NCBI GenBank assembly: GCA_944326525.1
Contig: CALVEG010000003.1
Coordinates: forward strand, 73,846-137,845
Direction: 5' to 3'
Length of the DNA stretch: 64,000 bases
Source of the DNA: Candidatus Gastranaerophilales bacterium
GTDB lineage: Bacteria; Cyanobacteriota; Vampirovibrionia; Gastranaerophilales; Gastranaerophilaceae
Made by a program: the position numbers and the translations under genes. This document shows positions 7,973 through 63,988 of the stretch, piece after piece (within the stretch, counting starts at the first letter, position 1; each line of letters begins with the position of its first letter). The notes beneath the pieces are model-generated. The model was not told where the DNA came from, did not search any database, and worked only from the letters and a program-made list of their open reading frames with translations.

Positions 7973-9091
7973 TTAAAAATTCTCTCTTATATTTTGTCCG
8001 GCAAGATTTTTGAGTTGTTTATAAAGTTGTATTTCTTCATCAGAAATTTTGTCCGGAATTTGTACCTTAACCATTACTATTATATCACCAACAAGATTAT
8101 TTTGTTTCAAACCTTTAGAAGAAATTCTAAAAATTTGTCCCGACTTAGTTTTAGGAGGTAGAGTAAGGGTTACATTTCCTTCCGGTGACGGAATCTCGAT
8201 ATCTCCTCCGAGAACTGCTTCAAAAGGAGATATCGGCACTTCACAAACAAGATTATTTCCGTCAATTTTAAAAGCAGAATCCGGCTCAATTGTAATTTTT
8301 AAATACAAATTACCGTTTTTTCCGCCGTATTTGCCTTTTTTCCCCTCGCCCGCCAGTCTTAATTTTGCACCGTTTTTGATGTTTTTAGGAATAGTTACAT
8401 TTATTCGCTGGCGTGTCATAACTTCTCCGCTGCCGTCGCAGTGTGTACATTTTGAACCGTTAATAAATTTTCTGCCATTGCAGTGAGTGCAAACTTCGGT
8501 TTGCAGCATATTTACTGTTTTATGAGTTCCTGTTATAGATTCTTTTAGTGTTATTGTTACATCCGCATAAATATCTTCACCATTTTGCGGAGGTGGCGTT
8601 TTTCGTGAGGATTTGTTTTTATTATTTTTAGGTTTTTGTGAAAATCCGTCTATTATATCATTTATTAAGTCTGTGAAATTTTTATCGTCTTTTGATAGTG
8701 TGTCTTTTGTTTTGAAGCTTTTTTCACAAGTTTTATTTTCTTTTGATTTTTCAAAAGAATCTTTCTTGTAAGATTTTTGAGTATTTGTGTTAGTTGTTGT
8801 ATTAGTATTTGAATTTGTGCGATAGCTTTTTCTATAGGGTTCGCTTTTTGGGGTAGAAGTTGTGCCGTTGGTTTTAAAGAATCCGTTTAAAATATCATAT
8901 TGCTTTCTTAATTTTTCGTCGCCGAGTGTTTCGTAAGCTTCAAGTATATCTTTGAATTTTACTTCTCCATCAGGATTAACGTCTGGATGATATTTTCTTA
9001 CAAGATGGCGATAGACGCTTTTTAATTCTACGTCTTCAACGTCCGGTGTAACTCCTAAGATTTCATAATAATTTTTACTGCTCTTCAACAT
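7973..9091 (-). CDS. DnaJ-like co-chaperone (J domain, single Zn centre, C-terminal substrate-binding domain)
   Basis: YYEILGV...YHPD J domain; CTHCNGRK...CTHCDGSG; N/T/K-rich linker instead of a G/F region. Confidence 0.8.
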   Translation of the reverse strand: MLKSSKNYYEILGVTPDVEDVELKSVYRHLVRKYHPDVNPDGEVKFKDILEAYETLGDEKLRKQYDILNGFFKTNGTTSTPKSEPYRKSYRTNSNTNTTTNTNTQKSYKKDSFEKSKENKTCEKSFKTKDTLSKDDKNFTDLINDIIDGFSQKPKNNKNKSSRKTPPPQNGEDIYADVTITLKESITGTHKTVNMLQTEVCTHCNGRKFINGSKCTHCDGSGEVMTRQRINVTIPKNIKNGAKLRLAGEGKKGKYGGKNGNLYLKITIEPDSAFKIDGNNLVCEVPISPFEAVLGGDIEIPSPEGNVTLTLPPKTKSGQIFRISSKGLKQNNLVGDIIVMVKVQIPDKISDEEIQLYKQLKNLAGQNIRENF

Positions 9092-9126: not shown

Positions 9127-10380
9127 CTAATCAGAAGATTTGCAAATATCTTTTCTATATTTCTTGCCTCTGAAATTAATAACATCAATATTTTCATAGA
9201 GCAATTCCCTGGCACGGGATAATGTAGAGGATGTTTTGGTTAGCACAAGCGATCTTCCGCCTGATGTCAGGTATTCAAAATATTTATTTCTTTGTGTATT
9301 AAAATGGTTTATGTCAATATCGTCAGCCAAATCAAGTCCTGTGATTACATCGTCTTTGATTTTACCGGAGGATAAAACGCAAGAAACGGATGAATTCGAT
9401 GAAATATCAAGGGTTTCGTAGTCATCTGCAAAAGATCCGACCGCACAGGCTTCAAACAAAGTGTACAGATTTTCGTTAACAAGGTTAAGTACAGCTTGGC
9501 AATCGTGGTTTGCAAGGAATGGTTTTAATTCCAAAATAGTGTAGCTGTCTGGTGATGTTAAAACGCCTTCGATACCGAGAATTCCAAGATATGGAATTTC
9601 TCTTGATGCAAGATTTTCAAGAATTGGCGCTGCAACTTCTGCTAAAATTCTATCCTGCATTTCGTAAGAAAGTTTGTAATCTGGACAATAAGAGCCCATT
9701 CCGGGGGTTAAAATTCCTCCGTTGCCATCTTCCATGAACTTGTAATTTGCGCAAGATGTTAGCGGTAGAAAATGATATCCATCTGTGATTATGTATAAAA
9801 TAAACTCGTGTCCCTGAACAAAGTCTTCAAGAATAATTTTTTCAGCTCCTGAAACATAAAGATCTTCAACAAATAGTGAAGCTGTTTGAATAGTGTTGCA
9901 AACTTGCCTGTCTGCACCTTCGGTACTTTCATCAGTTCTTATAACAACCGGATAGTCAGATTTTTTAAGATAGTCGACTGCCATTTGTTGTTTTTCAAAT
10001 ATACCAAACTTCGGTGTTGGAATTCTTAATCTGTAAAAAAGTCTTTTGCCGGTAGATTTTGAAATGGCCGGAAGTGCGCTTTCTGCTGAAGGTCCGAAAA
10101 TAAGTTGATTATTTGTCTGAAATAATGAAACGATATCAGCTTTTATCGCCTTTTCGTTTGTGCAAATAGTCATATCAATATCGTTTTCCATTACGAAATT
10201 TAGAAGTTCTGACGGCTGATCAGGTCTTATATCTACAAGTTCACAAAAGTCTTGGCTTGCAGCATTTCCAGGTGCCATATAAATTTTCTCTACAAATTCG
10301 TACCTTGCAAAAACAGATGCAAGCGCCTGTTCCTTTGCTGAATTTCCAACTATCAAAATTTTTTTATTTTCAAGAGCCAT
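9127..10380 (-). CDS. purD: phosphoribosylamine-glycine ligase (PurD)-like ATP-grasp protein, divergent
   Basis: Appears collinear with PurD as recalled (KILIVGN...APGNA, ...TPGMGSYCP..., GGRSLVLT...YRKDI). Start moved to ATG 10380 because the track start at 10431 is a TTG. Canonical GGREHA and ATP-grasp Gly-rich motifs are substituted. Confidence 0.6.
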   Translation of the reverse strand: MALENKKILIVGNSAKEQALASVFARYEFVEKIYMAPGNAASQDFCELVDIRPDQPSELLNFVMENDIDMTICTNEKAIKADIVSLFQTNNQLIFGPSAESALPAISKSTGKRLFYRLRIPTPKFGIFEKQQMAVDYLKKSDYPVVIRTDESTEGADRQVCNTIQTASLFVEDLYVSGAEKIILEDFVQGHEFILYIITDGYHFLPLTSCANYKFMEDGNGGILTPGMGSYCPDYKLSYEMQDRILAEVAAPILENLASREIPYLGILGIEGVLTSPDSYTILELKPFLANHDCQAVLNLVNENLYTLFEACAVGSFADDYETLDISSNSSVSCVLSSGKIKDDVITGLDLADDIDINHFNTQRNKYFEYLTSGGRSLVLTKTSSTLSRARELLYENIDVINFRGKKYRKDICKSSD

Positions 10381-51582: not shown

Positions 51583-52332
51583 ATGACAGAAAATGCTGAA
51601 TTGCAAAATGAAACAGATGACCGCCAACGTATATTATTAGCTGATGATGAAGCAAGTATCAGACGTATTTTAGAGACACGTTTAAAAATGGCAGGTTATG
51701 ATGTTTATACTGCCGCAGATGGTGAAGAGGCCGTTGCAGCTTTTAATAAATATAATCCTGATCTTGTAGTTTTGGATGTAATGATGCCAAAAATGGACGG
51801 TTATGGAGTTACAAGAGAAATTAGACGTACAGCTGATGTGCCGATTATTATATTAACTGCTCTTGGTGATGTTTCTGAAAGAATTACAGGTCTTGAACTT
51901 GGTGCAGATGATTATGTTATTAAGCCATTTTCACCAAAAGAATTGGAAGCTCGTGTGAAGGCTGTTTTACGTCGTACAAATAACCGTGAAACAGTTACTC
52001 CGGCAGGAAAAGTTACAAAGAATGTTATTACAACCGGTAACATAAAAATTGATACTGCTCGTCGTCAAGTATTCCGTAAAAATGAACGCATTCGCTTGAC
52101 GGGTATGGAATTCAGTTTGTTAGAATTGCTTGTAAATAATTCTGGTCAAGCATTTTCAAGAAACGAAATATTGCAGCATGTTTGGGCGTATCCGCCGGAT
52201 CATAGAATCGACACAAGAGTTGTAGATGTACATATTTCTCGTTTACGCTCAAAGCTTGAATCTGATCCTGCTAATCCAGAACTTATACTTACTGCTCGGG
52301 GTATTGGTTATATGTTCCAAAGAATTAGTTAA
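51583..52332 (+). CDS. rpaB: OmpR-family response regulator, RpaB/Ycf27-like
   Basis: Receiver (ILLADDE...LDVMMPKMDG...KPF) plus winged-helix; as recalled, it resembles cyanobacterial RpaB. Confidence 0.85.
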   Translation: MTENAELQNETDDRQRILLADDEASIRRILETRLKMAGYDVYTAADGEEAVAAFNKYNPDLVVLDVMMPKMDGYGVTREIRRTADVPIIILTALGDVSERITGLELGADDYVIKPFSPKELEARVKAVLRRTNNRETVTPAGKVTKNVITTGNIKIDTARRQVFRKNERIRLTGMEFSLLELLVNNSGQAFSRNEILQHVWAYPPDHRIDTRVVDVHISRLRSKLESDPANPELILTARGIGYMFQRIS

Positions 52333-52463: not shown

Positions 52464-52540
52464 GGCGCCAGTCGTCAAGCGGTTAAGACCTCGGATTGTG
52501 GTTCCGATATGCATGGGTTCGAATCCCATCTGGCGCCCCA
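52464..52540 (+). tRNA. tRNA-His (anticodon GTG) with encoded G-1 and CCA
   Basis: Hand-folded cloverleaf: acceptor GCGCCAG/CTGGCGC, anticodon stem TCGGA/TCCGA with loop TTGTGGT, T arm ATGGG-TTCGAAT-CCCAT, discriminator C, extra 5' G. Confidence 0.93.
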
Positions 52541-54015
52541 TTTTTAACATTTTTCCAGTATTTCATCTTGTAGAATACTGGAAATAATTCTATTTTAAGG
52601 GTTTCTCCGTTATAGCTTAGGGTTCGGACGCATGTTTGAATTATTTCTCTTTTTTGTTGTGGTGTTGCTAGTCTGAACAGTTCCGGCAATTGGTTGCAAA
52701 ATGCCATTATTAAACTTAATTTGTTATACAATATTTTGCTTTTTTGCTTGCGTTCTTCTAATCTTATTTCTAATTGGTTGAGTTCGGAAGCCCATGAAGC
52801 CATCATTTCATTCCAGTCTTTTTCTGACATGCCATAAGGTAAATTTCCATCAAGTTTGTCTTGATAGCTTTTCTTTATTCGATCTTTGATCTGTTCTATT
52901 TTCTTTTGTATTTCAACAGGGTTTTCAATACTGTTCTCATAGTCTTTGATTGCTTGCAATATCTCTCTTGCTTCATCTTTCATCAATTCAATTTCTTTTG
53001 GCGGAATATAAATATCATCAAGCATATCAATAAAAGTTTTTTCAAGATCTTCTTGTTTAATAGCTTTGCATCCGCATTTGCATCTATAATAAATATATTC
53101 TCCGGAGTTGTGTGCTCCTCGTTTCATTTCTGCTGATAATTTATGCTTGCCGCAGCATTCACACTTAATCATGTTTGTATAAGGGAAAAATATATCATGT
53201 GTTTTGGGTTTTTTCCACCCAAACATTGATTGAACTTCATAAAATAATTCTTTTGAAATCAATGGTTCATGCACTCCTTCATATATCATACCTTTATAGG
53301 GTAGTTTGCCAATATAAAAACTGTTCTTCAACATCCATTCAAATTTTCTTGGTGGATATTTTTCTCCAGTTTTTGGATGTTTAAAACCGTCAAGATATAA
53401 TGTATCGCCTAATCTTTTTAAGGAATAATTACCGGTTGCATATAATTCAAATGCTTTTTTAATATATTGAGAATTAATTGGATCAACAATAATAATTTTA
53501 GTATTGTCCGGATTAGTAAAATTTAAGTAGCCTATTGGAGCTTTTCCGGGTCTTATTCCTTCTCGAGCTTTTTGATCCATTCCCATTGTTGTTCTTTGGG
53601 AAATTTTCCTTCGCTCATATAATGCAGTACCTTTGGTGATCCATCTTAAAAGTTCACCTTCTGGACTATCTTCGTTACATTCAGTAACAGATAAAGGAGT
53701 TATTTTACATTCTTCAAAAAATTTTCCTAAAACAGCATAATCATATTCAGTTCCTCTTGATATTCTTTCCCATTTGTAAAAAATAAGAGCATCAACATTT
53801 GAAACATTTTCTCTAGTCCATTTTATTAATTCTTGGAGCTGTGGACGGTTAAGGTCTTTTGCACTAATCCCCTCTTCTCTAAAAACTTTTACAACTTCAT
53901 ATCCTAAAGATGCAGCAAACTCTCTATCTATTCTTTCTTGTCCGTTCAAAGAATAGCCTTTTGTTTGTTCTTCCGTTGAAACACGCACATATATTATGCA
54001 CTTCTTTTTATGCAT
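52483..54015 (-). CDS. large serine recombinase (integrase)
   Basis: IIYVRVSTEEQ catalytic Ser motif, recombinase domain, zinc ribbon (CECCGKH...YYRCKCGC), coiled-coil; last 19 codons lie antisense in tRNA-His. Confidence 0.9.
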   Translation of the reverse strand: MHKKKCIIYVRVSTEEQTKGYSLNGQERIDREFAASLGYEVVKVFREEGISAKDLNRPQLQELIKWTRENVSNVDALIFYKWERISRGTEYDYAVLGKFFEECKITPLSVTECNEDSPEGELLRWITKGTALYERRKISQRTTMGMDQKAREGIRPGKAPIGYLNFTNPDNTKIIIVDPINSQYIKKAFELYATGNYSLKRLGDTLYLDGFKHPKTGEKYPPRKFEWMLKNSFYIGKLPYKGMIYEGVHEPLISKELFYEVQSMFGWKKPKTHDIFFPYTNMIKCECCGKHKLSAEMKRGAHNSGEYIYYRCKCGCKAIKQEDLEKTFIDMLDDIYIPPKEIELMKDEAREILQAIKDYENSIENPVEIQKKIEQIKDRIKKSYQDKLDGNLPYGMSEKDWNEMMASWASELNQLEIRLEERKQKSKILYNKLSLIMAFCNQLPELFRLATPQQKREIIQTCVRTLSYNGETLKIELFPVFYKMKYWKNVKNGAPDGIRTHAYRNHNPRS

Positions 54016-59667: not shown

Positions 59668-60012
59668 TTAGTTAACTCCTTTATTTTTTTGTTTAAGTTC
59701 TGCCATTTCGGGACATATTTCAATTGGTAGGATTTTGTTGTTTGTTATGGTCATTTTCCAAACAAGAAAAATATCATCTTTAAATCTTCCATCTATTTCT
59801 ATCTTGCTACCTTCTACAATTCTTGTTTTGCCCCATGCAACACACATCCTTCCTTTTGGATTTGTGGTTGATTTGCAATAAAAGACAGTCTTATATTTTT
59901 CATTTACAAGTTCGTTTTGAAGTTCAATTTTTATAACTTCCGTACTTATATGGACTTTCTCCGCTTCATATTTTGAGGGTTGCCTGATGTATTTTTTTCT
60001 CTTTCTACTCAT
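59668..60012 (-). CDS. hypothetical phage protein (114 aa), basic N-terminus, beta-rich
   Basis: Start moved to ATG 60012 behind the strong SD aaggagg; it overlaps the upstream stop. Confidence 0.5.
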   Translation of the reverse strand: MSRKRKKYIRQPSKYEAEKVHISTEVIKIELQNELVNEKYKTVFYCKSTTNPKGRMCVAWGKTRIVEGSKIEIDGRFKDDIFLVWKMTITNNKILPIEICPEMAELKQKNKGVN

Positions 60013-60988
60013 TGCAATCCTCCTTATGTTCAAAATAATTGATGGCATCCATGACGGAAAAATGATATTTTTCAGAAAGTTCTTTAAATGTAGAATTGCG
60101 AACAAGAAACTCTTGCCTTTTTATTGGACAATATTTTAAAAGATAGTTTAAAGCTGATTGCTTATTGCAAATTGCATTATAATCTTGCTTTCTTTTTTCA
60201 TCCTGAAGTCTTGCTTCTTCTGCTTGTTCTGCTCTTTTTTTCTCTTCTTCAAGTTTTTTTTGTTTTTCCAGTTCTGCTGCTGCTTCTCTGTCCGGAGCAA
60301 GGAAATAATCATCAGATGCAAAACTATCCCATTTATTGAGAATTAGATCCAGTGAAGGTTTAACATTTTTCTTATCTTTAATATCCCAACCTCTTTTAGC
60401 ATTAGAAAAAACTTTTTCCCATATCTCAAGTGTTAGGTTGTTTTCAGAATGGATTTTAAAAATATTCTCTTTGTTGGTTTTAGAAACAATACGTGAGCTT
60501 TTGAATTTCTCGTTATAAATTTGAATGATTGACATAACAAGTTCTTCATTATAATTTTTTATCGAGTTATCAATATCTTCTTTTTGTTCTTTACTTTCGT
60601 TTTTATTTTTATATCTATTAGCTACGGAACGTCTTGCCTTTTCTGATTTTTCTTCTTGAAGTTTTAAATTTCTGATAACTCTTTCAGAAACATATTCTCC
60701 ATCAATAATTTTGAATAATTGAAAATCTTCAAGAATTTTTTTTATTATTTTTGTGTCGACTCTAAGCTCATCAGCAAGCATATCAATCTCATCTACATAG
60801 AGCTTATTCTCGTGAAGATATTCGATTATCTCCCAATAAATTCCGTATGCAGCATGTGAAATAAGATCTCTTGAAACAGTTTCAGATATTTCATTTTTCG
60901 TTTTCCTGAAATCAAAAAACAGACGTATAATTTTCTGATCAGTTTTTGCAGCTATGTCATGTGAAAAATATGGTTTAGATGCTTTCAT
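60005..60988 (-). CDS. DUF4373 (Lin1244/Lin1753-like) replisome-organizer-like protein
   Basis: YFSHDIAAKTDQKIIRL...AAYGIYWEIIEYL N-terminal signature; K/E-rich linker; C-terminal phage-type domain. Confidence 0.65.
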   Translation of the reverse strand: MKASKPYFSHDIAAKTDQKIIRLFFDFRKTKNEISETVSRDLISHAAYGIYWEIIEYLHENKLYVDEIDMLADELRVDTKIIKKILEDFQLFKIIDGEYVSERVIRNLKLQEEKSEKARRSVANRYKNKNESKEQKEDIDNSIKNYNEELVMSIIQIYNEKFKSSRIVSKTNKENIFKIHSENNLTLEIWEKVFSNAKRGWDIKDKKNVKPSLDLILNKWDSFASDDYFLAPDREAAAELEKQKKLEEEKKRAEQAEEARLQDEKRKQDYNAICNKQSALNYLLKYCPIKRQEFLVRNSTFKELSEKYHFSVMDAINYFEHKEDCNE

Positions 60989-61006
60989 TTCTATCCTTAT
61001 CTGCTT

Positions 61007-61333
61007 TTAATTTTTCAATGCTTTTCTATAGCATTTATCAACTCTTTCTTCTGCGATAACATTAAACATTTCTTTGTAAGCAAGTTTTGCAGCAGTATCT
61101 TCTCGTTGCATTTCATAAATAAACTCAGGTAAATCAATACCTGAAACTTGAGGAGTTTCAAGTAAATCATAATAATAACGGTATGCTTTTTTATAAAGAA
61201 AATTTAATTTCTCTTTTCTTTTTCTAGTTTTGTAATCTTTAATCTGTTTTATAAGATGCAATAAAATGTTTATTTTGATTGCTCTTGGTCTTACAACTTT
61301 ATTTGTGGGAAATTTAATTACATTTGTGCTCAT
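61007..61333 (-). CDS. hypothetical phage protein (108 aa)
   Basis: ORF with SD ggagaaat. Confidence 0.5.
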   Translation of the reverse strand: MSTNVIKFPTNKVVRPRAIKINILLHLIKQIKDYKTRKRKEKLNFLYKKAYRYYYDLLETPQVSGIDLPEFIYEMQREDTAAKLAYKEMFNVIAEERVDKCYRKALKN

Positions 61334-61352
61334 AATATTTCTCCTTATTTTG

Positions 61353-61532
61353 TTAGAGTTTAATGCCGATTAGTTCTTCAATATTATTTTTTTTGATGTA
61401 TTCACGCAGAATTAAAACAACTTGCTTGGAACGAGAGTTGTTTTTTAATTTTGCATAGGCATCAATTATTGACAAAACTCTTGGAGGGAAACCTATTGAT
61501 TTCAACATTTGCCCTTTAAATTCTTCTTCCAT
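61353..61532 (-). CDS. small Cro/RHH-like regulator candidate (59 aa)
   Basis: Hand-translated MEEEFKGQMLKSIGFPPRVLSIIDAYAKLKNNSRSKQVVLILREYIKKNNIEELIGIKL; SD ggagaagtt; first gene of the leftward operon, divergent from the XRE gene. Confidence 0.45.
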   Translation of the reverse strand: MEEEFKGQMLKSIGFPPRVLSIIDAYAKLKNNSRSKQVVLILREYIKKNNIEELIGIKL

Positions 61533-61717
61533 AACTTCTCCTATTTTTGTACGATAAACTACACGAATGTAACGGCAAATTTTGCCGTTTTCGTGTTTTT
61601 ATGATATATGTTAGTTAAACAGTTAAACAAACTAACAATATTAATTATACATAATCGTGCATAAAAGTAAAGCACAAATATGCATAATTTACAAAACTTC
61701 ATACAAACGGAGTAGGA
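61533..61717. promoter_or_regulatory. divergent promoter/operator region of the element's genetic switch
   Basis: 36-bp imperfect palindrome at 61561-61596; TGTTAGTT/AACTAACA inverted repeat at 61609-61638; TGCATAA direct repeats at 61658 and 61681; TATAAT-like boxes on both strands. Confidence 0.55.
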
Positions 61718-62008
61718 ATGTATCAGGAACGCATTAAAAAAATTAGGTCTGAATTAAAGCTGTCAGTCGCAAAGATGGCAGATGAAATGAATATTCCATC
61801 AAGAACTTTTGTGTCTTATGAAAGCGATGGAAGAACTCCGTCTTTAGAATTTCTTGCACAATTATGTAAAACTTTTGATATAAATGCAAATTGGTTTATA
61901 ACAGGTGAAGGCAATATGTTTAATGAACAACAACCTTATGCAAGCAACGAAGAACTTGAGCAAAAGGTTGTTGAAGTAATGAAAAAATACGGAGTTATTG
62001 AGAAATGA
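61718..62008 (+). CDS. XRE/CI-type HTH repressor
   Basis: IKKIRSELKLSVAKMADEMNIPSRTFVSYESDGRTPSLEFL...WFITGEGNMF. Confidence 0.85.
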   Translation: MYQERIKKIRSELKLSVAKMADEMNIPSRTFVSYESDGRTPSLEFLAQLCKTFDINANWFITGEGNMFNEQQPYASNEELEQKVVEVMKKYGVIEK

Positions 62009-62105
62009 GTTTTACAAGCTCATCAAAAAGCTTGAAGGCCTTTTGTTTTCCGTATGTTTTGATTAGAGCATTAAGCAGAGCTTTTAATAAATCTTTTTGC
62101 TTCAT
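61995..62105 (-). CDS. 36-aa helical peptide candidate, convergent with and overlapping the repressor 3' end
   Basis: Hand-translated MKQKDLLKALLNALIKTYGKQKAFKLFDELVKLISQ; SD aaaggagaa 7 nt before the ATG. Confidence 0.3.
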   Translation of the reverse strand: MKQKDLLKALLNALIKTYGKQKAFKLFDELVKLISQ

Positions 62106-62154
62106 AGAAGTTCTCCTTTCTTTATTAAGAAAGTTGGAGAAGGAAAGGAATATT

Positions 62155-62661
62155 ATGAAAAAAGTATTATTTATTTTTATTTTTATTTTTTCTTGTATAA
62201 GCGTATATGCTGCAACAGCTCCTAAATGGAGTGAATTTTGTCCTGATGGTTTTGAAAATCCAGTAATTTTATCATTGGAAGAAATCGAGAATAAAGCGGA
62301 GAAGCTTGCAGAACAAAAAACAAAAGTTTTTTATTGTAAATCTGATAAGACTTATGCAAAAATTTTGCGTGGTGTTACAATATTACCTGCCTTAGATTGT
62401 TGGTGTGGCAATAAACTTGCTAAATCAAATTTTAGACAATCCCTTTTTTATGAAAATGAAATAAATTCATATTGGTTAAATAGAAAGAAACAATTTGAAA
62501 ATGAATTAAGCTCTTGTAATGGTTTATCAGAAGATGCAAAAGGTATGTGTTATTTAAAAGTTAGAGAAATTGAACATAAGAAAAATAATGATTTAAAAAA
62601 TGAAGCTGCTTTAAGAGGTATTCAAAGACAGTTATTTGTTCAAAATCTATTAACTAATTAA
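62155..62661 (+). CDS. secreted/membrane-anchored Cys-containing protein (168 aa)
   Basis: MKKVLFIFIFIFSCISVYA signal sequence behind SD ggagaaggaaagg; the track's alternative start at 62005 (ATGA overlap with the XRE stop) cannot be excluded. Confidence 0.55.
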   Translation: MKKVLFIFIFIFSCISVYAATAPKWSEFCPDGFENPVILSLEEIENKAEKLAEQKTKVFYCKSDKTYAKILRGVTILPALDCWCGNKLAKSNFRQSLFYENEINSYWLNRKKQFENELSSCNGLSEDAKGMCYLKVREIEHKKNNDLKNEAALRGIQRQLFVQNLLTN

Positions 62662-62730
62662 CATGAAGAAACATGAAGCAAATATACCAAAAAGGCTTGT
62701 AATTTTAAAAAAATAGTAAATAATGTAAAT

Positions 62731-63018
62731 ATGAACAAGTTTATTTTTTTATCATTAATATTATTTTTTGCATGTTCTTCTGCTAATGCTGAATATATAC
62801 AACAAGACAGATTTGGCAATTATCAAATGAGTAATGGTGTATATATACAAAATCTCGGTGGTGGTTCATATACTACAAGTAATGGTGATTATATTCATAA
62901 AATGAACGACTACCAATGGCGAACAAATTCAGGAACGGTTAATGTCCGAAAAGATACTTGGGGAAATTACAATGTAACTTCTCCTAATGGAAGTTATTAT
63001 TTGCAAAGAGGTTTGTAA
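62731..63018 (+). CDS. small secreted protein (95 aa) with G-N-Y / S-N-G-x-Y-I repeats
   Basis: MNKFIFLSLILFFACSSANA signal peptide. Confidence 0.55.
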   Translation: MNKFIFLSLILFFACSSANAEYIQQDRFGNYQMSNGVYIQNLGGGSYTTSNGDYIHKMNDYQWRTNSGTVNVRKDTWGNYNVTSPNGSYYLQRGL

Positions 63019-63175
63019 TACATTTGTAATACAGATGTAAAATAATATTTATACGTTCGTAATACGTTTGTAATACGAACGTAATTCGTTTGTAAAATAT
63101 ATTTTTACATTCGTATAATATTGTGAAATACAATTAAAATACCTCTGTAATACGTTCGTATAACGATTGTATTAC
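63011..63175. repeat. 15 contiguous 11-bp iterons, consensus gTTtGTAATAC
   Basis: Read directly in 11-nt register: gtttgtaatac, atttgtaatac, agatgtaaaat, aatatttatac, gttcgtaatac, gtttgtaatac, gaacgtaattc, gtttgtaaaat, atatttttaca, ttcgtataata, ttgtgaaatac, aattaaaatac, ctctgtaatac, gttcgtataac, gattgtattac. Confidence 0.85.
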
Positions 63176-63235
63176 TATAAATAAAATAAAATAAATTAAA
63201 TTAAATTAAAATAAAATAAAAAATACTATACGTAT
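63176..63235. other. 60-bp A/T-only tract with pentamer pattern (AAATA)n(AATTA)n, candidate DNA-unwinding element
   Basis: No G or C between 63176 and 63235; immediately follows the iteron array. Confidence 0.7.
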
Positions 63236-63536
63236 TTTTTATAATAGTCTTAAAAAAAATTATTTTTTATTTTTTCTTTTAGAGCAAAATTTGTTAATTT
63301 TAAATCTTAAATATTAATAAATGTTAAGCAACTCAAATATTGTAAATTTCTAATTGTTACGATTTCTTTAAAAAATTAACAGTTTAACAACTATTTACAT
63401 TTAAAAAAAAATCGTTTAATTTTTAAAACAGATTATGAAATGTATATTTTTCACTAGGGATAGTGAGCTGGGAAGCATAAATATAACGAGTAATAATTGG
63501 TGAACATAGGCAAACTACGTATTTTTTAGGGGAGAG

Positions 63537-63932
63537 ATGCAAAGAATAAGGTTTTCAAATATTTCAATAATACCTTATGATGTTTGGTTTTTGGACGGAA
63601 CCGAACATTTTTGTGAGAGAAAACTTTTACTTGGAAGAACTCCTAAATTAAAAACAGTAGTCAGTCTTATTGAAAAAAGAATTATAGATGGAAGAATTTT
63701 TGTTGATACGCAATGCGGAATAAAAGCTGAAAAGATTATCCAAAACGAAAGAAACCGCATTATGTACACAAGGCAAGATGTTCTTTGTAGTAAAAGAGGA
63801 AAACCTTTTGGATGGACTTATGGGCAAAATAAGGAAATCCACAATAATAAAGGTGAAATTATTGCAATAAGACAAAGAAGGTGTGATTATTTCGGACAAT
63901 CTGAAATAGTCAAAGAAGAAAGAGTTGAATAA
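63537..63932 (+). CDS. hypothetical protein (131 aa)
   Basis: ORF behind SD aggggagag. Confidence 0.5.
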   Translation: MQRIRFSNISIIPYDVWFLDGTEHFCERKLLLGRTPKLKTVVSLIEKRIIDGRIFVDTQCGIKAEKIIQNERNRIMYTRQDVLCSKRGKPFGWTYGQNKEIHNNKGEIIAIRQRRCDYFGQSEIVKEERVE

Positions 63933-63958: not shown

Positions 63959-63988
63959 GCCTCGATATTTGTTCGGGGCTTTGTTTTG
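63959..63988 (+). terminator. candidate rho-independent terminator
   Basis: GCCTCG-atatttgtt-CGGGGC (one G-U pair) followed by TTTGTTTTG. Confidence 0.4.

Follow-up and report, generated by a model that had tools for sequence, protein, structure and literature searches.

A phased repeat array beside an A-rich tract as the probable replication origin of a Gastranaerophilales prophage, with a repeat type that co-varies with one residue of an initiator-like phage protein

Fifteen 11-bp repeats that run up against a stretch of A and T raise the question of what this locus does and which protein reads it. An earlier note on the 64,000-nt stretch of DNA analysed here (the window) had proposed either an origin of the repeats-plus-A/T layout or a centromere-like site, and had named a DUF4373 protein, an RHH candidate and an XRE repressor as possible binders. 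Comparison with related prophages suggests that the array, the tract and an adjoining palindrome most likely constitute the origin used for lytic replication by a temperate podovirus-like prophage of Gastranaerophilales (Melainabacteria), a group of non-photosynthetic relatives of cyanobacteria. We know of no experimental work on how phages of Melainabacteria replicate. The composite consists of three parts:

63011-63175, no strand assigned: iteron array of fifteen 11-bp units, each with a 7-bp palindromic core GTAWTAC or a degenerate copy of it
63176-63215, plus strand: A-rich tract, candidate DNA-unwinding element, (TAAAT/TAAAA)n with 5-nt periodicity, directly abutting the last heptamer
63216-63242, no strand assigned: perfect palindrome ATAAAAAATAC-TATAC-GTATTTTTTAT with 11-bp arms and a 5-nt loop, candidate hairpin or cruciform

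Read in register from 63011, the array comprises fifteen units up to 63175, as the earlier note had described, with a lag-11 self-identity of 0.578 compared to about 0.3 at other lags and echoes of 0.48, 0.47 and 0.45 at lags 22, 33 and 44. This is the highest periodicity of any 165-bp stretch in the whole 64-kb window at lags 5 to 30, and none of 5000 shufflings of the array region gave a value above 0.478; TRF called only the first 7.7 copies. The units form three clusters (63011-63043, 63055-63098 and 63143-63175), between which A/T-rich spacer units keep the register. The five perfect GTAATAC heptamers (63015, 63026, 63059, 63070 and 63147) and the two identical units (GTTTGTAATAC at 63011 and 63066) reported before are both present, as are the embedded inverted repeats (CGTTCGTA at 63054 and TACGAACG at 63074), and an inverted heptamer GTATTAC lies at 63169. 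Six of the ten GTAWTAC occurrences in the window fall within the array. Unit 1 overlaps the stop codon of the ORF 62731-63018, which confirms that the array starts within the end of the upstream gene. In a promoter and terminator scan, promoter-like matches in the array region were at chance level, and the 'terminators' called inside the array were discarded as being simply its inverted repeats. An Rfam search of the region returned a chance-level match only (E = 0.23), and no DnaA boxes were found near the array.

The strict A/T-only run next to the array measures 50 bp (63176-63225) rather than the 60 bp previously given, and is the longest in the window, the runner-up being 27 bp. Its final 10 bp form the left arm of the perfect palindrome, which as single-stranded DNA folds at -7.1 kcal/mol (z = -4.4). 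This palindrome following the tract, and the location of the site just upstream of the terminase operon, were both absent from the earlier note. A second palindrome, made of an A-run and a T-run at 63250-63285, was set aside as its fold was without significance in the window. Two independent Logan contigs, L005 and L006, end in or just after the A/T tract, their first positions corresponding to window positions of about 63181 and 63248, respectively; low complexity combined with strain mosaicism is the likely cause, with a physical DNA end as a less likely alternative.

The following genes define the surroundings of the array:

52465-52540: tRNA-His
52483-54015, minus strand: large serine recombinase gene, its 3' end overlapping tRNA-His
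61532 down to 54069, leftward: early operon encoding RHH-like, p108, DUF4373/Lin1244-like, zinc-ribbon, beta-clamp-like and methylase proteins
60005-60988, minus strand: rep, encoding a 327-aa DUF4373/Lin1244-like replication-initiator-like protein (Rep)
61718-62008, diverging from the early operon: XRE/CI-like repressor gene
63537-63932: p131, a 131-aa ORF without family match that starts about 360 bp downstream of the array

This gene content indicates that the array sits within a prophage that is integrated at tRNA-His and has a podovirus-like late module. The serine integrase ORF (510 aa) extends with its 3' end through tRNA-His, its last ~19 codons being the reverse complement of the tRNA, so that the phage appears to integrate into the tRNA 3' end and to rebuild it. 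Reading the array as attP was rejected because the element is integrated and an intact attP is impossible inside it. A host response regulator beside the integration site (51583-52332) has what we take, by eye, to be a resemblance to the cyanobacterial RpaB/Ycf27-type regulators of the OmpR family, an appearance that fits a Melainabacteria host.

The RHH-like protein of the early operon comprises 59 aa (p59 in the window, p58/59 across loci) and is encoded by the first gene of that operon, a Cro-like position. Two secreted 'moron' proteins are encoded between the XRE repressor and the array, which itself lies between the repressor/moron operon and the p131-TerS-TerL-portal operon. The gene just upstream of the array always encodes a small secreted protein with short Tyr/Gly/Asn-rich repeats (window 62731-63018, with a 48-bp DNA period; 9161-9475 in the relative L002; equivalents in L015-L045); the variation of this gene among the phages points to a fast-evolving moron family. 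The late operon extends past the window and was read from contigs carrying proteins identical to those of the window; it encodes p131, TerS (phrog_51), TerL (Terminase_3), a T7-like portal, a capsid protein and T7_gp14. No helicase, loader or primase gene was recognised in the phage. The nearest cultured relatives of TerL are APSE phages, and at 27% identity they were too distant for deducing the packaging mode.

To follow the locus through related phages, 117 Rep homologues served as the starting point for retrieving loci from IMG/VR, GTDB genomes and metagenomes. Gene order is the same throughout: rep, p108/122 and p58/59 on one strand, and XRE, variable morons, the array with tract and palindrome, p131, TerS and TerL on the other. 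The composite of array, tract and palindrome is present in all of the approximately 30 related loci that cover the position, and this layout is conserved though the Rep proteins of these IMG/VR, GTDB-genome and metagenome loci are only 36-80% identical. Thus, the search for the repeats in related elements that had been proposed as a check revealed homologous 11-bp-phased arrays at the same position. These arrays are composed of 7-bp palindromes GYAWTRC at 11- or 22-bp spacing, with the last heptamer always abutting the tract; spacers with T-runs occur in many relatives, and in several an intrinsic terminator already lies upstream of the array. An IMG/VR search with p131 found one truncated locus.

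Across 28 loci the A-rich tract is 31-52 bp long and consists of 66% A, 30% T and 3.7% G+C, with an identity of 0.82 at lag 5 versus 0.46 at other lags. The palindrome occurs in the relatives in 22 distinct versions with arms of 9-16 bp that are always perfect, and 10 of 11 stem positions show symmetric change among these versions; folded as single-stranded DNA, the palindromes of the different loci reach -7 to -10 kcal/mol with z of about -4 to -5. More tentatively, the conserved 5-nt periodic (TAAAT)n tract might template a single-strand-binding filament that advances in 5-nt steps, which would parallel the 3-nt DnaA-trios of bacterial origins.

One candidate for a protein acting at this site is Rep. 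Its AlphaFold2 model (mean pLDDT 78) has an N-terminal part with a winged helix (wing 93-100) and a long basic helix (102-127) carrying residue 122, followed by a disordered linker, a helical middle domain, a coiled coil (234-271) and a C-terminal bundle. Against the Pfam family Lin1244_N (PF14297) Rep scored 17.9-19.0 bits, below the gathering cut-off of 25, while distant Rep homologues carry PF14297. Structural matches in BFVD were to Lin1244-N, DUF6291, DUF1376 (YdaU) and 'replication protein' (E = 1e-5 to 1e-2), those supporting the Lin1244/DUF4373 family lying at E = 1e-5 to 7e-4. In Enterococcus phage EF62phi, a protein annotated as acting in replication initiation shares 33% identity with Rep residues 1-146 (E = 9e-11), and a gene for a DnaC-like loader comes after its gene. 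PDB sequence and fold searches with Rep found nothing significant, an NCBIfam search gave no match, and the literature on DUF4373 yielded incidental mentions only. At annotation level, Rep appears to belong to the phage initiator/replisome-organiser class; the label 'initiator' derives from annotation-level homology and one conserved gene neighbourhood. The remark that no ParM-like or initiator gene is adjacent holds for ParM but is misleading for the initiator, as an initiator-like gene is encoded about 2 kb away in the same element. An 18-bp DNA periodicity at 60141-60288, inside rep, was rejected as a second iteron set, since it reflects the coding sequence of the Lys/Glu-rich coiled coil.

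Related arrays are of two heptamer types, GTAWTAC (T-type) and GCAWTGC (C-type). Association with heptamer type was computed column by column over nine protein families, and residue 122 of Rep was the only coherent separating column found:

60623-60625, minus strand: codon of Val122 in the basic helix (...EKARRS-V-ANRY), co-varying with heptamer positions 2 and 6

Residue 122 is Val or Ile in all 13 T-type loci, in which GTAWTAC or GTA half-sites prevail and GCAWTGC occurs 0-1 times, and Ala in all 18 C-type or mixed loci, which hold 0-1 GTAWTAC and GCAWTGC or mixed heptamers (Fisher p = 7e-8 for residue 122 versus dominant half-site, 31 loci). Across 104 Rep homologues this position is essentially dimorphic (A 48, V 47, I 8, D 1). 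In the 8 closest pairs of opposite type, with N-terminal Rep regions 83-96% identical, residue 122 differs every time, and no other column does so. As these pairs are nearly identical, relatedness does not explain the association, and the switch would have happened many times independently. Neither does linkage, since the N-terminal coding region between codon 122 and the array stays near-identical in the pairs. Moreover, for five loci residue 122 was used to predict the array type ahead of any look at their DNA. The prediction was clearly right for L068, L069, L070 and L072; the fifth locus, L071 (Ala), has no GTAWTAC and carries a mixed array in which GTA half-sites outnumber GCA. The co-variation indicates that the array is recognised by Rep and thereby favours the DUF4373 protein among the binders initially considered.

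None of TerS, p131, TerL, the XRE repressor and the small RHH-like protein tracks the heptamer type. The XRE repressor fails as the binder because it is 96% identical in L037 (T-type) and L027 (C-type), and the RHH candidate fails likewise, with 89% identity between L017 (T-type) and L034 (C-type). Column 57 of p58 does separate the types, yet carries unrelated residues on both sides and was discarded as hypervariable, p58 being 89% identical across types. Assignment of the array type to the type of the whole N-terminal Rep domain (YFSHD versus YFQHD) held in the first 13 loci only and was refuted by near-identical domains with opposite arrays (L017 versus L033/L034; L037/L053 versus L027/L059).

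Mixed arrays were seen in L002 (9500-9623), L071 (2560-2730) and, in reverse-complemented coordinates, L035 (2900-3130) and L044 (9700-9876). In L044, whose Rep has Ile122, C-type heptamers lie far from the A/T tract and T-type heptamers beside it; in L002 and L035, both with Ala, GCA and GTA half-sites are mixed in single heptamers. These arrays may be intermediates of specificity switching. A third heptamer variant, with S instead of W at the centre (GCACTGC/GCAGTGC, units GCTCATGCACT), was observed in L055 and L056 at ~8200-8408 (reverse-complemented locus coordinates), where the residue equivalent to 122 is Ala. The central base of the heptamer may be read by a Rep residue other than 122.

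Comparison of the window prophage (L001) with its close relative L002 revealed a replaced segment:

60553-63372, no strand assigned: mosaic block differing between L001 and the 97%-identical L002, containing Rep residues 1-145, p108, p59, the XRE repressor, the morons, the array, the A/T tract and the palindrome

Up to 60553, L002 is 97% identical to the window; from there to 63372 the two are diverged, and beyond this block identity returns to 96%. The L002 array has its own, different heptamer (GCAWTRC mixtures). The first breakpoint falls at Rep residue ~146, which implies that the DNA-binding module and the array swap together. TerS, p131 and TerL are 100% identical in the two phages although the arrays differ, which argues against terminase as the reader of the array.

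An operator-like motif occurs in the repressor/early-promoter intergenic region (AGTTAAAC twice and AACAGTTAAACAAACTAAC, window 61613-61640) and again as TTAACAGTTTAACAAC at about 63378-63395, approximately 150 bp upstream of p131. In L002 it lies at 8526-8550 and 9850-9870, and is thus shared by both immunity variants. Its position upstream of p131 suggests that this gene is under repressor or Cro-like control. The p131 leader (165 bp, window 63372-63536) is 96% conserved across the mosaic boundary, and an intrinsic-terminator-like hairpin (window 63959-63979) follows p131 ahead of TerS; on these grounds p131 may be separately regulated and is perhaps a late regulator. The array itself was rejected as a bank of repressor operators, as the cI-cro intergenic region, which the window and L002 have in similar form, is without GYAWTRC repeats. 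A conserved long palindrome, ACACGAA..AACGGCAAATTTTGCCGTT..TTCGTGT (window 61561-61597; L002 8469-8506), separates the early promoter region from the beginning of the RHH-like gene and was scored as terminator-like in the scan.

The co-variation supports binding of Rep and leaves the consequence of this binding free. Rep could act as a transcription factor that coats the phased sites while replication starts elsewhere, and would then activate or silence the rightward p131/terminase late operon or insulate it from the transcript of the lysogenic repressor/moron genes. Such a function would suit an array placed between lysogeny-expressed and late operons 360 bp upstream of p131, and the motif shared with the cI-cro intergenic region at ~63378-63395 implies that the region is partly regulatory. 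However, the promoter-like matches in the region are at chance level, and in several relatives an intrinsic terminator already stands ahead of the array. Furthermore, a promoter would not need the strictly conserved A-rich tract and perfect palindrome, which are typical of origins, and the relatives of Rep are annotated as replication initiators, one of them followed by a DnaC-like loader. We consider it improbable that the array serves regulation in place of replication.

Since pac or cos sites are often found just upstream of the packaging operon, the position ahead of p131-TerS-TerL would also be compatible with TerS binding the phased repeats and the large terminase cutting at the palindrome, whose two-fold symmetry is as expected for a nicking site, or at the A/T tract, in or just after which L005 and L006 end. 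These contig breaks are sufficiently explained by low-complexity sequence coinciding with a strain-mosaic boundary, and the array is internal in contigs of 34-42 kb. The repeats do not correspond to small-terminase specificity: the array type is tracked by Rep and by no column of TerS, and the identity of TerS, p131 and TerL between L001 and L002 despite their different arrays makes a packaging site very unlikely. Still less credible is a parC-like centromere at which the small RHH-like protein would segregate an extrachromosomal prophage, the alternative raised at the outset. Its basis is the 11-bp period shared with parC of plasmid R1 and the presence of the 59-aa RHH-like gene, whose L071 homologue has a weak RHH_1 match. 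The element is, however, integrated at tRNA-His and has a serine integrase, and no ParM, ParA or TubZ gene was found in any locus examined, nor an adjacent operon of an actin-like ATPase and an RHH adaptor. The p58/59 protein heads the early operon, like a Cro, and does not track array type.

In our estimation, the probability that the locus is an iteron origin to which Rep binds, complete with unwinding element and hairpin, is about 0.7. The layout of repeats plus A/T tract recognised in the earlier note stands, and the origin reading has gained comparative support from the composite in ~30 prophages and from the co-variation of residue 122. The locus combines multiple repeats in helical phase (15 units with an 11-bp period; ~30 loci), an abutting A/T-rich candidate unwinding element (50 bp; conserved in 28 loci) and, as judged by co-variation of Rep residue 122 with heptamer positions 2 and 6 in 31 loci, a cognate initiator encoded by the element.

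According to the gene order, induction would lead to synthesis of the 327-aa Rep from the leftward early operon. Rep would then bind the 7-bp GTAWTAC palindromes, probably as dimers, with residue 122 specifying base pairs 2 and 6, presumably by direct contact (Val/Ile for T:A, Ala for C:G). Sites repeated every 11 or 22 bp would place the bound Rep molecules on one face of the DNA and, together with the T-run spacers of many relatives, may wrap it into an O-some-like nucleoprotein complex, and the resulting stress would melt the adjoining 40-50 bp A-rich tract. More speculatively, the palindrome at the far edge of the tract would fold as a hairpin once single-stranded and could provide host replication proteins with a signal for loading or priming, a role proposed because the phage is without a recognisable helicase or primase. 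Forks starting from the site would run codirectionally with transcription on either side, that of the leftward early genes and that of the rightward late genes.

How Rep reads its site can be sketched more tentatively. A basic helix behind the winged helix may grip the 7-bp palindrome in the manner of bZIP proteins, which bind the 7-bp AP-1 site, and by eye only we take the Rep segment SEKARRSVANR to resemble the GCN4 basic region TEAARRSRARK. A single side chain would then set base pairs 2 and 6, with Val/Ile placed against the thymine methyl group and Ala for cytosine, and the family would have flipped at least 8 times between two replicon-specificity types, each time with concerted conversion of all 7-15 iterons. 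Selection for such flips might come from avoidance of cross-talk between co-resident prophages. This detailed picture is possible, although we would not favour it.

By sequence comparison alone, an origin-like DNA element was paired with its putative binding protein, and the specificity was narrowed to one residue and one symmetric base pair. The DUF4373/Lin1244-like family is widespread in phages, and we know of no characterised origin for an initiator of this family. For the prophage family studied here, the results provide a rule for origin annotation: an 11-bp-phased GYAWTRC array, a (TAAAT)n tract and a perfect palindrome upstream of the terminase operon. If borne out, the repeated two-state switching would be a clean natural case of initiator-iteron co-evolution.

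Among known systems, parC of plasmid R1 has repeats with an 11-bp period in about ten or more units. The array shares this period and a number of units of ten or more, but differs from R1 parC/ParR in that no partition ATPase is encoded, the element is an integrated one and the repeats show no co-variation with the RHH protein. At the protein level, Rep is similar to EF62phi gp16 and thus to DnaD-like/Lin1244/YdaU initiators in its N-terminal 146 aa and its BFVD structural matches; the N-terminal module alone matches, however, and the Pfam score is below threshold. The oriV of RSF1010 comprises iterons, an A/T-rich region and hairpin ssi signals. In common with this oriV and with iteron plasmids, the locus shows iterons followed by an A/T-rich region and a palindrome able to form a hairpin, while a fold match to plasmid Rep (WH1-WH2), a DnaA box and an element-encoded primase or helicase were not found.

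In lambda, a palindrome lies beyond the A/T-rich tract, and the N-terminal DNA-binding domain of O is exchanged together with the iterons between related phages. In lambdoid origins, O binds iterons that are imperfect inverted repeats beside an AT-rich tract, and also binds single-stranded AT-rich DNA; the tract is strand-asymmetric, and the several initiator sites are helically phased (PMC7466680). Unlike ori-lambda, the candidate origin is intergenic and lies outside the initiator gene, about 2 kb from it across the immunity region, and no P-like or DnaC-like gene was recognised. It has 7-bp cores at 11-bp spacing, up to ~15 here versus four to six 19-bp iterons, its tract has a strict 5-nt periodicity, and Rep is without detectable sequence relation to O. 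Nevertheless, it shares with ori-lambda phased initiator sites, each an imperfect inverted repeat, beside a strand-asymmetric A/T-rich tract, as well as a palindrome beyond that tract and, as seen in L002, a DNA-binding module and iterons that swap together.
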